Assembly: GCA_043802485.1 (NCBI GenBank)
Contig: JAZDKZ010000002.1
Coordinates: 1 to 37,598, forward strand
Reading direction: 5' to 3'
Source: Candidatus Aenigmatarchaeota archaeon
GTDB taxonomy: Archaea > Aenigmatarchaeota > Aenigmatarchaeia > Aenigmatarchaeales > Aenigmatarchaeaceae
Length of the DNA stretch: 37,598 nt
Shown here: positions 4,483 through 20,525 of the stretch, in pieces
Layout of the letters: every line of letters begins with the position of its first letter
Position numbering within the stretch: the first letter of the stretch is position 1
The notes under the pieces: model-generated
What the model was told of the DNA's origin: nothing
What the model saw: the letters and a program-made list of their open reading frames with translations, nothing else
Database searches by the model: none
Position numbers and translations under genes: made by a program

Positions 4483-4743
4483 TCAGACAATGTCCTTCTC
4501 GGCAACAATGATAAAGTCACCAACAGACCTAACTGCTGAGAACGGTATGAGTATCCTTCCCTTGTCGTCCTCGGCAAGTTTCAAGTCCAAAGCCTGCCTT
4601 GTTGGCTCAGAAACAATAATGTTCATCAGCTCTCCAGACTCTGTGATAAAATTAACATCGCCCACGACTCCGAACTTCCTACCAGTGTCCTCAGAAACTA
4701 TGACCTTACCGACCATCTCTTTGGCTCTTAGTTTATCGCGCAC
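4483..4743 (-). CDS. PRC-barrel domain protein (CdpB-like, possible cell-division factor)
   Basis: GKVIVSEDTGRKFGVVGDV..SGEL..IPFSAVRSVGDFIIV PRC-barrel pattern. GTG start with AAGGTGA RBS. Confidence 0.85.
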   Translation of the reverse strand: MRDKLRAKEMVGKVIVSEDTGRKFGVVGDVNFITESGELMNIIVSEPTRQALDLKLAEDDKGRILIPFSAVRSVGDFIIVAEKDIV

Positions 4744-5638: not shown

Positions 5639-5971
5639 ATGACGATTTACAAACTTGATGCTAAAGATTTGCCTGAAGTTTTCATGGAATCTGATAGTAT
5701 AAATGTGAGTGGTGGGATATTGAAATTGACTAAAGGTAAAAAGACCTATTACACACAATTAGAGAACGCCATAAACGGCTATCTACCATTGGAAAGGGGA
5801 ATACAGCCAGAGCTTGCTGTGACAGACTTGTGGTCAAGATCTAGACTAAAAACTGGTTATAGTACCTCCAGAGACGCTTCTTATGGCTCTAAAGTCTCAC
5901 AAACGAAAGTAGAGAAAAACTACGATTCTTACAAATCAAAGAAAGGAAAGGTCAATCCTTTCACAATTTAG
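5639..5971 (+). CDS. Hypothetical protein
   Basis: 110-aa ORF with TTTATATA box ~25 bp upstream (leaderless). No family recognised. Confidence 0.6.
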   Translation: MTIYKLDAKDLPEVFMESDSINVSGGILKLTKGKKTYYTQLENAINGYLPLERGIQPELAVTDLWSRSRLKTGYSTSRDASYGSKVSQTKVEKNYDSYKSKKGKVNPFTI

Positions 5972-7062
5972 TTCTCAACGAACATGGTCTTTACTTTAGG
6001 CGTCAGAGCGTACATGAAGGCCTTGCCTCTGCCCTCTCTTTGGACATAACCGTCCAGCATCAGCCTTCTGAGGATGTTGTTCACAGACCTTACAGCATGG
6101 CCCTTTGACTTGTAGCTCTTCATCTCCAGCTCCTCGACAATAGTGGTCGGAGTCAGCCAGTCCCTCTTGGAAAGCAGCTCTAATATCTTCCTCTGCTTGA
6201 AGGGCAGGTTCCTGATCTGCTCGTCTGAAGGCGGCCTGGGCATGAAAGTGACCTTTGGCTCATCAACTCTCACTTTTGGCAGCTCGATTTCCTTATGCTC
6301 TTCAATGTCTTTCAGGGTTATGGCGTCCATGCCCTTTTCCAAAGCTGAATTGACCAGCCTGTCACACAATTTCAGAATCTCCCTTGGGAAGCCGCCTGTC
6401 TTGTCGTAAATCCTGCCAACAGAATCCTCTGTGAAAGGCAGTATCCCCTTGCCCCCGACACTCTCTATTCTCCTCTTTATGAGCTCCTTGGTCTCAATTT
6501 TATCCAAAGATATCAGGTTTATCCTGGTGGTTATCCTCTGGTCCAGGGTCTGCAGCTCTGAAAGCTTTTCCTCGACAACAGGCATGCCGGCCATGACTAG
6601 GCTTATGTTGTCTATCTGGTCTACTAGAACCCTTAACCACTCGAGAACCTCCTTGTTGGTCTCATGTATCTCGTCCAACAGGAACACCAGATGCTTGCCT
6701 TTGAGCTTCTTGTTGACGTATTTGGGAAGGTTGTAAAGTGAGGGTTTGTTGCCAAAAAGCCTCTCAAGGAAGCTGATTCCGAAAAGGTCGGTAAAAAGCG
6801 TGACAAACTCGTCCGGGTTCTGAGGCGGCTTTGAAACGTAGAATTTTGAGGCGTCATAATTCTTTTCGACCCATTTGAGGAAAGTGGTCTTGCCTGCCCC
6901 TGTCCTGCCTGTTATAAGGGCGATTTTGTGCTTGTTCTCTATGTGCTTCAAGGCTGCCTTGACTTGGTTGTCGTAGCCGACGAAAAGGTTTGGGTCGATT
7001 CTAAGAACAAACGGGTTTTCAGTCCATCCCCATTTTGAAAAATTATCATTCATAATGTTCAT
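5968..7062 (-). CDS. AAA+ ATPase (ExeA/AAA_22-like) with C-terminal winged-helix domain
   Basis: WGWTENPF..DP N-terminus, Walker A GRTGAGKTT, Walker B LVFLLDE, LVMAGMP, GGFPREIL. C-terminal wHTH: QRKILELL..TPTTIVEEL..VNNILRRL..GYVQREGRGKAFMY. Confidence 0.85.
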   Translation of the reverse strand: MNIMNDNFSKWGWTENPFVLRIDPNLFVGYDNQVKAALKHIENKHKIALITGRTGAGKTTFLKWVEKNYDASKFYVSKPPQNPDEFVTLFTDLFGISFLERLFGNKPSLYNLPKYVNKKLKGKHLVFLLDEIHETNKEVLEWLRVLVDQIDNISLVMAGMPVVEEKLSELQTLDQRITTRINLISLDKIETKELIKRRIESVGGKGILPFTEDSVGRIYDKTGGFPREILKLCDRLVNSALEKGMDAITLKDIEEHKEIELPKVRVDEPKVTFMPRPPSDEQIRNLPFKQRKILELLSKRDWLTPTTIVEELEMKSYKSKGHAVRSVNNILRRLMLDGYVQREGRGKAFMYALTPKVKTMFVEN

Positions 7063-7068
7063 ATAATA

Positions 7069-7500
7069 TTCACGTGAACTAGGTATTTAAATTTTACTGA
7101 ATTTCACGTGAACATGAAGTTCATATATGAAGATTCTGTGAAGATAAAATGAAGATTTTCGTGTATTTTTGATTCATGACGTGAAGGTGATAAAATCTTC
7201 CCGTTTTTTACATGGTTTTTAATCAACTTCATATGAAATTTGAATTTGTGAGTTTTGCCACGTGAAGGTTTTGTGAAGTTCATGTGATGTTCACAAAATG
7301 TTCATGTAGTTCACGTAATATTCATGTGAAGTTCACATGTTCACATGTGAAGTTAACGTGAAATACGCATTATGTTACATATTATATATATTATTCACGT
7401 GAATATTTTAAGAGATTTGGAGAGATGTGTGTAGAAAGTGTGAATAAGGTGTGAATAAAATGATTTGAGAAATGAAGGATATATGAACATTCACGTGAAT
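7069..7500. repeat. Array of TTCACGTGAA palindromes and variants
   Basis: Perfect TTCACGTGAA at 7069, 7103, 7394 and 7490. Variants: TTCATATATGAA 7120, TTCATATGAA 7228, GCCACGTGAA 7257, TTCATGTGAA 7321, TTCACATGTGAA 7340, TTAACGTGAA 7353. Many GTTCAY/RTGAAG half-sites. Confidence 0.9.
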
Positions 7501-7615
7501 CAGAAAATCGACTTTTAACGTCTATTTCAAGGTATTTTTACGTCATTTGACTTAAAACTCTCTAAGGAACATGTTTATATACATGCTATACCATTATATA
7601 TAACAGGTGTTATAG

Positions 7616-7909
7616 ATGGGTCAAGAAATACACAAAAAAACCGTAGTAAACATAACCAAAATATTAGATTTGCTCAGGGAAAATGGGGAACTACACATCA
7701 GAGGTATTTCCAAAGCACTTGACTTAAACCCTTTCATAGTCTCCAACATAGTTAACAATCATATAGATTTTTTTGTTAACTCCAGAGCCATAGACCAGTT
7801 CGGAATAAGACTAAGACTGATAGGCCTAAAATCTGGTAAGGAAGAAACTACTGTAGAGGACGTGCTAAAGTACATCAAAGTCAAGCAGAGAATCAGGGGC
7901 AAAATATGA
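7616..7909 (+). CDS. Small winged-helix DNA-binding protein
   Basis: KILDLLRENGELHIRGISKALDLNPFIVSNIV HTH pattern; AGGTG RBS. Confidence 0.75.
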   Translation: MGQEIHKKTVVNITKILDLLRENGELHIRGISKALDLNPFIVSNIVNNHIDFFVNSRAIDQFGIRLRLIGLKSGKEETTVEDVLKYIKVKQRIRGKI

Positions 7910-18082: not shown

Positions 18083-18426
18083 GCACACCCCATCATTACT
18101 AGTCGAACTCGACTTTATAGATAAAAATGTATTATATTATTATTATATATAACAATGTTATATGAAATGAAGGTTCAATCTTAATCTATATGATATCTGA
18201 AACAAGAAGATTTTCATCTCAGAACCCTTATTTCATTTGGATTTTGACTGGAAATGATAGGGTGGTTATTTCATATGAAACAAAAACCTCAAAAATCATG
18301 TAACAAAACCTTCACATGAAGGTTTTCCTAAGGAAATGATGGGGTTAACGTGAAGCAAATTATATATATGGTAATCATGATAATTACAAAGGAAACAAAG
18401 GTTCATGATATTCACGGTGCAATTTA
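18083..18426. other. Replication origin oriC with ORB-like elements and AT-rich DUE
   Basis: Directly upstream of orc1/cdc6. ORB-like copies: TTCGACTAGTAATGATGGGGT (18087-18107, -), TCCAAATGAAATAAGGGT (18224-18241, -), TTTGACTGGAAATGATAGGGT (18243-18263), TTCCTAAGGAAATGATGGGGT (18325-18345), TTACAAAGGAAACAAAGGTT (18384-18403). AT-rich tract ~18114-18163. Confidence 0.85.
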
Positions 18427-19623
18427 ATGGTCAATAATGATAATATTTTCACAAAGTTCTTGGAATCCAAACCCATATTTTCCAATAGAGAAGCATTGAC
18501 TATTTCCTTCAAGCCAGAGACCATACCTCATAGGGAGAAACAGGTCAATGACTTGGGAAGGATATTGACACCTGCTCTGAAAGGTGGTAGGCCTAGCAAC
18601 ATATTCCTCTACGGAAGGCCTGGTACAGGCAAGACGCTTGTCTCAAGGTTTGTCGGGTCCGAGCTTGAAAAAATCAGCGGTAGTAATGGCCATGAAATCA
18701 AAGTTCTATATGTCAACTGCAAAATGAAGAAAATAGCAGACACTGAGTATAGATTACTGGCTGAGTTATCCAAGGAGTTGGGCAAAGAAGTGCCGTTTAC
18801 AGGCCTTCCAACACCTCAAGTGTACAACGCTTTCTTCGAGGCTCTTGACGCCAAAAAACAGACAATCATAGTGATTATCGATGAGATTGACACACTTGTC
18901 CAAAAAACAGGCGATGAGATTTTGTATAATCTTACAAGGGTAAATCAGGACCTCAAAAACTCAAAATTGTCCATAATAGGCATAACAAACAACCTTGGTT
19001 TTATAGAGACCTTGGATCCAAGGGTCAAAAGCTCTCTCAGTGAAGAGGAACTGATATTCCCACCATACAATGCGCTTCAGCTGCAGGACATCCTAAAGAA
19101 CAGGGCATCTATAGCTTTCACACCAGATATTTTGGATGTTGGAGTGATAGAGAAATGTGCTGCCTTGGCTGCTCAGGAGCACGGCGACGCAAGACGAGCT
19201 CTGGATTTGTTAAGAGTGGCAGGAGAGCTGTCTGAAAGAAATTCTCATGATAGGGTTTCTATAGAGCAGGTTGACAACGCTGAGGAGAAAATAGACGTTG
19301 ACAGGGTGATAGAGACAGTGAAAGCTCAACCCAAGCAGAGCCAGATAGTGCTGTATTCGATAATACAGCTGGCTGAAAAGAGTAAGGAGATACAGACTGG
19401 CGAGGTCTTTGATAGATATCAGGACGTATGCAAGCAGCAGTGTATCAAGACCCTTACCACAAGAAGAGTGTCAGACCTAATTTCTGAATTGGACCTTTCC
19501 AGCGTGATAAGCACCAAGATTGTGTCAAAGGGCAGGTACGGCAGGACAAGAGTCATATCATTGAATCTGTCTGATACAGTCTACAATAAATTAAAGAATC
19601 TACTGGAAGAATTATTCTTATGA
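18427..19623 (+). CDS. cdc6: Orc1/Cdc6 replication initiator
   Basis: PHRE, NIFLYGRPGTGKT, IIDEID, LDPRVKSSL, FPPYNA, HGDARRALDLLR, C-terminal wHTH with SKGRYGRTR. Confidence 0.97.
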   Translation: MVNNDNIFTKFLESKPIFSNREALTISFKPETIPHREKQVNDLGRILTPALKGGRPSNIFLYGRPGTGKTLVSRFVGSELEKISGSNGHEIKVLYVNCKMKKIADTEYRLLAELSKELGKEVPFTGLPTPQVYNAFFEALDAKKQTIIVIIDEIDTLVQKTGDEILYNLTRVNQDLKNSKLSIIGITNNLGFIETLDPRVKSSLSEEELIFPPYNALQLQDILKNRASIAFTPDILDVGVIEKCAALAAQEHGDARRALDLLRVAGELSERNSHDRVSIEQVDNAEEKIDVDRVIETVKAQPKQSQIVLYSIIQLAEKSKEIQTGEVFDRYQDVCKQQCIKTLTTRRVSDLISELDLSSVISTKIVSKGRYGRTRVISLNLSDTVYNKLKNLLEELFL

Positions 19624-20525
19624 CCCATTTGGAAGAGCTTGTTAGTTTGGGTTTTCTTGTAGGAGAAGATGCTAGGGAATCTATAGAGAAACTCAACAAA
19701 AAGGACTTTGAGAAGGCTGTCAAGCACTTTAAGGAAGAGAAGCCTTTCATAATCACAAAGGAAATGATAGAAATTGTTCTGGCCAAAGAGATAGAGATGG
19801 TGAAGCAGTTTGAAACCAAAGACGTGTTCACTGTTCAGGATTATGTCGAGGCCCTGAACAAAAGGTATGGCTTCTTGCAGGATTTGCTGGTAAAAAAAGT
19901 CGAGCTGAAGAACATAGTGTCCATAAGCAAGGTAAGCTCAGGCAACGTGAGCGTCATTGGTATGGTCAAGGACATTGTTGAGAAGAGTGGAGGCAGGACA
20001 GTGGTTCTTGAGGATCCGACAGGGTATATAGACGTTGTCATGGACAGGAAGCTGGTCGATAGGCTGGTTCTTGACGATGTAATTGCTGTTTTTGGCCTGG
20101 CAAAAAACAAGACGCTGTTCGCAGAAAAGATGCTCTTTCCCTCAATTCCCCTAAGACCTGTGAATCTCAGTGAAAAGAGCATAAAGGTTGCCTTTACCGA
20201 CAAGAAGGTGGATGCTGACTATATTGTTTCAAAGAAAAACATCCAGGATATGATAAAGAAAAAGAAATACGACATATCTAGTCCGTGCATATTCAAAATC
20301 GGCGACATAACCATCCTCGTTCTTGTTAAAGCCAAGTCATTGGAAGTTCTGAACAAGCGCTACTTTAACAATGACAGGATCGATTTTCTTATTGAACCTG
20401 CCCCTGACATAATATTCACAGACGAGGACGTCAACATGAGCTACAAGGGAATAAGCATTGTCCCGAAAGACAATATTATAGACCTGAAGACGAGAAAAGT
20501 GGAGAAAATAGGTCAGGTGAAATGA
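19620..20525 (+). CDS. PolD small subunit (DP1) homologue, shortened and catalytically inactivated
   Basis: DP1-like N-terminus and OB fold (VSVIGMVKDI..LEDPTG..LVLDDVIAVFG..LFPSIP). Remnant phosphoesterase segments (SSPC..IGDITILV; DFLIEPAPDIIFT) lack DxH, GD, GNHD and GHxH. Translationally coupled to cdc6. Confidence 0.8.
   Translation: MTHLEELVSLGFLVGEDARESIEKLNKKDFEKAVKHFKEEKPFIITKEMIEIVLAKEIEMVKQFETKDVFTVQDYVEALNKRYGFLQDLLVKKVELKNIVSISKVSSGNVSVIGMVKDIVEKSGGRTVVLEDPTGYIDVVMDRKLVDRLVLDDVIAVFGLAKNKTLFAEKMLFPSIPLRPVNLSEKSIKVAFTDKKVDADYIVSKKNIQDMIKKKKYDISSPCIFKIGDITILVLVKAKSLEVLNKRYFNNDRIDFLIEPAPDIIFTDEDVNMSYKGISIVPKDNIIDLKTRKVEKIGQVK

Follow-up and report, generated by a model that had tools for sequence, protein, structure and literature searches.

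A single intergenic region upstream of an AAA+ ATPase gene in a Candidatus Aenigmatarchaeota genome holds a dense array of short half-sites that are phased to the DNA helix. Related genomes repeat the arrangement, with one array per genome, phased at 10.5 bp, placed before the ATPase gene and lying 5-32 kb from cdc6 where the two share a contig. Among the roles that a sequence-only reading had offered for this region, a centromere-like site is the preferred one, at a rough probability of 0.5: the ATPase would polymerise on the array and tether it to the membrane. Positions refer to the window, i.e., the whole stretch of 37,598 nucleotides that was analysed. The array and its two flanking genes comprise the following features.

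5968..7062, minus strand: 364-aa AAA+ ATPase with a C-terminal winged helix, the likely array reader
7063..7615, no strand: phased array with 17 TTCAC/GTGAA half-site centres on one helix face, period 10.5 bp
7069..7078, no strand: perfect palindrome on the downstream side of the TATA-like box of the ATPase gene
7084..7091, minus strand: TATA-like box of the ATPase gene, a putative promoter element, between two palindromes 34 bp apart
7103..7112, no strand: perfect palindrome with the top PWM score genome-wide
7257..7362, no strand: dense core, built of half-sites and near-palindromes at a period of 11 bp, which covers the TRF repeat
7379..7395, no strand: AT-only run of 17 bp
7394..7403, no strand: perfect palindrome
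7490..7499, no strand: perfect palindrome at the far array end
7616..7909, plus strand: 97-aa small wHTH protein, a putative accessory, class-wide neighbour of the ATPase and of a coiled-coil replacement

The array consensus is about A-W-N-TTCA-YR-TGAA, and the array is unique in the genome. Four perfect copies of TTCACGTGAA (at 7069, 7103, 7394 and 7490), the extension of the 7394 copy to 14 bp, the AT-only patch and at least six near-copies had been reported from the sequence; all are present, the near-copies being seven sites with one or two mismatches (at 7176, 7228, 7257, 7279, 7310, 7321 and 7353). The spacing had been called irregular, but the half-sites are phased at 10.5 bp, with a mean cosine of 0.75 that was reached by 0 of 5000 random placements, and TRF gives an 11-bp period at 7272-7335. 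Pooled homologous arrays have best periods of 10.55 and 10.4 bp. The region is not a CRISPR, as had been stated, the repeat unit being a 5-bp half-site without regular repeat-spacer units.

The genome-wide count that had been proposed as a check reveals strong clustering. Four of the five perfect copies of TTCACGTGAA in the 769-kb assembly (7 contigs, 89% complete) fall in the array; the 550-bp array has 17 half-site centres against at most 6 in any other counting window of the whole genome and a mean of 0.92; and 9 of 17 above-threshold sites in a PWM scan lie in the array or oriC. The fifth perfect palindrome (C6:119613) is beside a TATA-like box that precedes the gene of a basic 88-aa protein, which by eye resembles a ribosomal protein. 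Contigs from three public runs (two studies) span parts of the array, some of them identical throughout, so the array is not an assembly artefact. A hidden ORF was rejected, in line with the earlier statement that no long ORF is present: the longest inside the region is 59 aa and is not seen at matching places in relatives. A structured ncRNA was also rejected, since an Rfam search gave no match at E<=1 and the presence of half-sites in both orientations accounts for an RNA fold z of -3.1; no RNA holder is listed for the array. A sigma-70 promoter scan, a type of scan unsuited to archaea, gave chance-level counts. Judged from its letters, the array is a candidate protein-docking site. The earlier proposal tied it to a flanking wHTH protein, and that tie stands, with the 97-aa protein a less likely binder than the winged helix of the ATPase on grounds of helix conservation.

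Evidence for the link to the ATPase came from the same region in related genomes, where the array is kept upstream of the same ATPase gene across the class and the gene at its other side varies. Among 28 same-order loci, a perfect palindrome lies upstream of the ATPase gene in 27 and a phased pair pattern likewise in 27; the corresponding counts among 39 other-order loci are 22 and 32. These counts include kin that are not independent. The 40 other-order loci were hand-picked to span families, and 20 loci from families f16 and f19 were likewise picked from wHTH-positive rows; loci without upstream DNA (L004, L029, L057) and duplicates of other loci (L031-L035) were left out. The palindromes around the TATA-like box of the ATPase gene are 31-34 bp apart in the ten closest loci. 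Across the phylum, the ATPase was found in 178 of 251 genomes, 176 of them with strong matches, and a triple phased pattern in 137 of 251. Of 176 genomes with the ATPase, 131 have the pattern, versus 6 of the 75 without the ATPase, in a 2x2 count that left out the weak ATPase matches of G244 and G055. The pattern is missing in 45 of the 176 ATPase genomes, and is strict in that it misses the present genome (G000); in one of the 6 pattern-positive, ATPase-negative genomes, the array is at a contig end beside the small wHTH gene. Several loci have weak or unphased arrays, and family f10 (G042, G142) keeps the ATPase and its recognition helix with an array of 2-3 half-sites. Families without the ATPase also lack origin-type Cdc6, so co-occurrence alone cannot separate the ATPase from Cdc6 as the reader. 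One fragmented genome, G045, is a counter-case in which origin-type Cdc6 is present and neither ATPase nor array was found.

At one locus (L013:2581-3339, minus strand), an ORF of 252 aa, in which two LAGLIDADG-like motifs were spotted by eye, lies between array and ATPase start, shifting the array 750 bp upstream. The present genome also has an ATPase paralogue at C4:51532-52512, with 29% identity, a different wHTH helix and no upstream array, which serves as a negative control.

Two segments of the ATPase are central to its proposed role.

6055..6105, minus strand: predicted recognition helix of the ATPase wHTH, with R325, N328 and N329 invariant in 52 of 52 family members
6739..6780, minus strand: amphipathic aromatic/basic insert, residues 95-108, a predicted membrane-targeting helix

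The Walker A and B motifs, R176 and R227 are invariant in all 52 family members as well. The predicted structure (pLDDT 86) has an AAA+ domain plus C-terminal wHTH, i.e., an initiator fold, and as modelled its full length appears to match Cdc6/Orc1 best (2qby_A, E 2.8e-13; Z 18.5-19.1). For the AAA+ core, MuB (Z 17.7, rmsd 3.8 over 230) and TnsC (Z 17.3) are matches just as near. By sequence, the family is ExeA-like (E 1.5e-28, below cut-off); against the Orc1/Cdc6 family TIGR02928 the protein scores 16 bits, where the cut-off is 181, and a domain search found no match to Cdc6_C or Cdc6_lid. A search of the Atlas returned solely unnamed archaeal AAA clusters.

The ATPase is likely to be the protein that reads the array, because its recognition helix is conserved, its winged helix has a BlaI/MecI-like geometry and palindromes surround its own TATA-like box. 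Identity is 0.76 within the helix versus 0.45 across the whole protein; the corresponding values for the small wHTH in the same lineages are 0.35 versus 0.31. The resemblance to BlaI/MecI is weak: the BlaI/MecI box TACANNTGTA, as given in the accessible part of PMC1935004, shares a 4-2-4 geometry with TTCANNTGAA, whereas the ATPase has no dimerisation domain of that type, is an AAA+ fusion and faces many phased sites. A match of its winged helix to AspA is non-significant (E 0.07). The palindromes around the TATA-like box suggest that the ATPase regulates its own expression.

The insert varies in sequence (0.39) and length but stays aromatic, basic and amphipathic, and is net positive in 47 of 52 family members. 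It resembles the C-termini of MinD-like proteins of this genome, and MinD-like ATPases have an amphipathic C-terminal helix (PMC11407121, from the accessible part). The four ParA/MinD-family genes elsewhere in the genome all have amphipathic C-termini and are, on sequence grounds, probably MinD-like. A membrane pattern, defined post hoc on sequences already seen and among kin that are not independent, is present in 38 of 52 ATPase family members. In a comparison of 129 of 150 representatives (21 without an aligned insert were left out), it was present in 21 of 44 wHTH-bearing representatives without transmembrane helices, in 13 of 43 with neither wHTH nor transmembrane helix, and in 0 of 42 relatives with predicted transmembrane helices, where the inserts are hydrophilic. 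The family is predicted to work at the membrane, via the helix or a transmembrane anchor. The insert is at the position that we take to be that of the DNA-contacting initiator-specific motif of Orc1/Cdc6, and it could contact DNA or protein instead of membrane.

In the proposed mechanism, each winged helix would read one TTCA half-site, and ATP-dependent AAA+ oligomers would align along one DNA face, nucleating at full palindromes. The amphipathic insert would bind membrane weakly alone and strongly once many copies are on the array. The just-replicated origin region would be captured at the membrane, where sisters would be held or moved apart, with ATP turnover for release. The ATPase would repress its own promoter and, in this order alone, may also sit at the cdc6 promoter and last ORB, linking the anchor to initiation. 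The 97-aa wHTH would be an accessory and may perhaps read a second word, GTGAG.

The alternative that survives best, although unlikely, is that the array is a second or auxiliary origin, or serves initiation control. The Orc1-shaped ATPase would be an alternative initiator on phased iterons, opening the AT patch and loading MCM, or else titrating or licensing the ORB origin. The relevant features of the window are as follows.

4483..4743, minus strand: PRC-barrel protein, listed as context; each of the nine other regions compared has it 1-2 kb downstream of the ATPase
18083..18426, no strand: canonical oriC preceding cdc6, containing ORB-like boxes and an AT-rich stretch
18088-18107: inverted ORB look-alike
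18325-18344: ORB-like box
18427..19623, plus strand: Orc1/Cdc6, above the NCBIfam cut-off

The position of oriC, ~11 kb from the array in the sequence-only reading, is supported by the ORB-like box, the inverted look-alike and the AT-rich stretch upstream of cdc6. Histone, RPA, RadA, primase, Orc1/Cdc6 and PolB genes are present in the window. The array is thus origin-proximal, and the ATPase and cdc6 are separated by 11-23 kb in 16 same-order genomes that have both on one contig and by 5-32 kb in 8 of 10 genomes from other orders; in G050, ~240 kb of contig upstream of the ATPase has no cdc6 match. Origin proximity is common to a conserved RadA-RPA-PRC-ATPase block, and need not be selected for the array since the whole block shares this position.

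An auxiliary origin would be consistent with the top full-length structural matches being Cdc6/Orc1, and with phased repeats and an AT-only run near an initiator. The array word also occurs at three sites in oriC (18270, 18311, 18345) that flank the last ORB and the cdc6 promoter region; 22 of 30 same-order genomes share this arrangement, compared with 1 of 12 from other orders and none of 32 distant cdc6 copies. An ORB-like pattern, which was self-defined from the window sequence and the accessible part of PMC1904270, is present in 21 of 30 cdc6 upstream regions versus 0 of 67 arrays. Arrays are less AT-rich than oriC, with a lowest 40-bp GC of 0.15, in this array and as the median, versus 0.075 in the oriC unwinding region. 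The ExeA-like rather than Orc1 sequence family, and a replacement protein without an ATPase domain (below), also argue against an initiator.

Strand-switch models fitted to the four-fold degenerate sites of ten regions bear on both origin readings. The best switch was at the ORB in five of the ten (G057, G176, G026, G131 and, weakly, G010); the other five do not inform the comparison, G000, G006 and G139 being uninformative and G023 and G152 being fitted better by a no-switch model. In the five ORB-favouring regions, an array-only model is worse by 4-41 log units. A two-origin model fits 7-23 log units less well in G057 (where the skew has the opposite sign), G176, and G026 and G010 (where few genes lie beyond the ORB), and is about equal to the ORB-only model in G131 and G139. 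Log-likelihoods summed over all ten regions are 260 (ORB), 207 (both) and 156 (array). Whole-contig GC skew of the present genome is too weak or mixed for origin placement. Because the fitted strand switches favour the ORB, the array is probably not the main origin, and the suggestion of a second iteron-like origin is weakened.

Other observations concern the surroundings of oriC. A palindrome, ATAACA-N-TGTTAT, lies beside the oriC AT-rich stretch (18148-18162) and is found at 24 of 30 same-order cdc6 loci and also in other orders; further sites are at 7599-7614 and at C1:14248 and C6:129101 of the same genome, and a one-base-longer form is in the small wHTH promoter. A 301-aa ORF (19620-20525), located after cdc6 and followed by PolB, matches the N-terminal/OB part of the PolD small subunit alone, well below cut-off. 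Relative to other genomes, G057 (C2) and G026 (C4) carry the cdc6-PolB block in inverted orientation about the ORB region.

Somewhat less probable again is an extended operator, where the ATPase-wHTH would be a transcription factor that senses nucleotide and wraps the divergent promoter of its own gene plus a few others, those of cdc6 and the ribosomal-protein-like gene; sequestration at the membrane would switch it off. MalT-like and BlaI-like proteins are precedents for this type of regulation. The palindromes on both sides of the TATA-like box, the lone sites near other promoters (18311, C6:119613) and the retention of promoter-level sites alone in f10 are all in keeping with such a role. 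However, ~15-30 phased half-sites over 400-600 bp, kept class-wide in reduced genomes, far exceed the needs of autorepression, and the 17 PWM matches, 9 of them in the array or oriC, leave very few other strong sites genome-wide.

It is improbable that the 97-aa small wHTH is the centromere-binding reader, in a ParG/SegB/AspA-like role, with the ATPase as its motor. The small wHTH gene is 0.2-8 kb from the ATPase gene in 10 of 10 large regions (iterated profile), it is the sole part common to the replacement system, and GTGAA differs by one base from the GTGAG found upstream of the replacement gene. Nevertheless, its recognition helix shows no more conservation than the remainder of the protein, yet the word is invariant; and its gene occurs in 46 of the 64 f16 and f19 genomes, families that yielded no ATPase, TTCAC array or origin-type Cdc6. 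Fold searches with the small wHTH gave solely generic winged helices. Cdc6 copies in f16 and f19 are solely distant ones (30-36% identity), and origin-type Cdc6 seems to have been lost along with the ATPase.

Families f16 and f19 (L259-L278) instead have a coiled-coil wHTH gene, with phased repeats of lineage-specific words inside its 5' coding part and oriented GTGAG sites upstream. Strong matches to this replacement came from 56 genomes, with the ATPase present as well in one of them, and the protein is without an ATPase domain. The mean count of GTGAG is 4.5 per 600 bp in front of the replacement gene and 1.9 per 700 bp in ATPase arrays, relative to a background of 0.55 per 600 bp; these counts faintly suggest that the shared small wHTH may read GTGAG. 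A phased array, a winged helix and a predicted membrane helix are common to both versions. Since the ATPase domain alone differs between them, an anchoring role is favoured over helicase loading. Homology of the winged helices in the ATPase and the replacement is not claimed, the profile match being weak (probability 47%, E 2e-4).

An archaeal parS cluster bound by ParB can be largely dismissed: the central 10 bp do equal the core of the 16-bp parS consensus TGTTNCACGTGAAACA (accessible part of PMC7022226), as had been pointed out, and the array is origin-proximal, but the flanks differ, the unit is a phased 5-bp half-site, and ParB_N (PF02195) was not found in the 89%-complete genome with a control positive in 10 of 14 genomes. 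This array has 4-5 mismatches to the 16-bp consensus and is without the TGT/ACA flanks, the 67 homologous arrays never have fewer than 3 mismatches, and the flanks favour non-parS bases, position -3 being A in 286 of 368 sites. With the 16-bp site missing and ParB_N not found, parS/ParB identity was rejected, and convergence, which the sequence-only reading had raised, fits the parS likeness; the window indeed has no ParA or ParB. The SMC search that it had recommended found an 825-aa SMC with a hinge. This protein (C6:168174-170651; L165, L168) is short for a condensin SMC, and its gene is near a third-position T/A skew switch, possibly the terminus.

The array and its ATPase have parallels in several known systems. 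Like bacterial ParABS, the array has a palindromic 10-bp centre near oriC; unlike ParABS, it forms a dense 10.5-bp half-site lattice, and the adjacent ATPase is AAA+ rather than ParA-type. Archaeal Orc1/Cdc6-ORB (accessible part of PMC1904270) shares the AAA+ domain with C-terminal winged helix, gene-adjacent repeats and an AT-rich patch, whereas the 67 arrays have no TTCC..GAA ORB core and a separate cdc6/ORB origin carries the skew switch. Palindromic centromere-like sites upstream of their own gene are also seen in SegAB-segS of Sulfolobales and AspA-ParBA of pNOB8, and AspA is a wHTH protein that spreads over 200 bp (PMC11381335, 10.1101/2025.04.15.649018 and PMC5120986, as far as their accessible parts go). 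Those systems, as described there, use a Walker-type ParA and a separate DNA binder, in contrast to the ATPase and reader predicted here as one chain with a membrane helix. In Bacillus, Noc is a site-specific DNA binder whose amphipathic helix recruits DNA to the membrane (accessible part of 10.1101/2021.02.11.430593); it is a ParB-family CTP clamp on scattered sites, rather than an AAA+ fold on one origin-side array. MuB/TnsC/ExeA-type ATPases have the closest AAA+ core by rmsd and the ExeA-like family match, but here there are no adjacent transposase or secretion genes, and the gene is single-copy and class-wide with a conserved wHTH. By analogy, the system may work like segS/SegB or AspA sites combined with Noc membrane recruitment, while being a member of none of these.

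In the literature searched, which covered few subscription papers and included the accessible parts of 10.64898/2026.05.13.725050 and 10.1101/2023.03.28.534520, the array and the ATPase family are undescribed. The parts and their layout appear to be new, and from them we infer the function. A tentative proposal, at slightly less than even odds, is that Aenigmatarchaeota have their own anchoring and segregation machine, consisting of a phased centromere beside oriC, a filament-forming, membrane-plugged AAA+ reader and a small wHTH accessory, and that in some families a coiled-coil wHTH membrane tether, with new repeat words, took the place of the ATPase. The defined site of 550 bp, the two small proteins and point mutants are testable in vitro and in E. 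coli without growing the host. If the proposal is true, the machine would be a type of partition that uses neither ParA, actin nor tubulin and is built on an Orc1-like scaffold. The known archaeal systems, SegAB and AspA-ParBA, are from other lineages, and the finding bears on how chromosomes are positioned and segregated in DPANN archaea with sub-megabase genomes.
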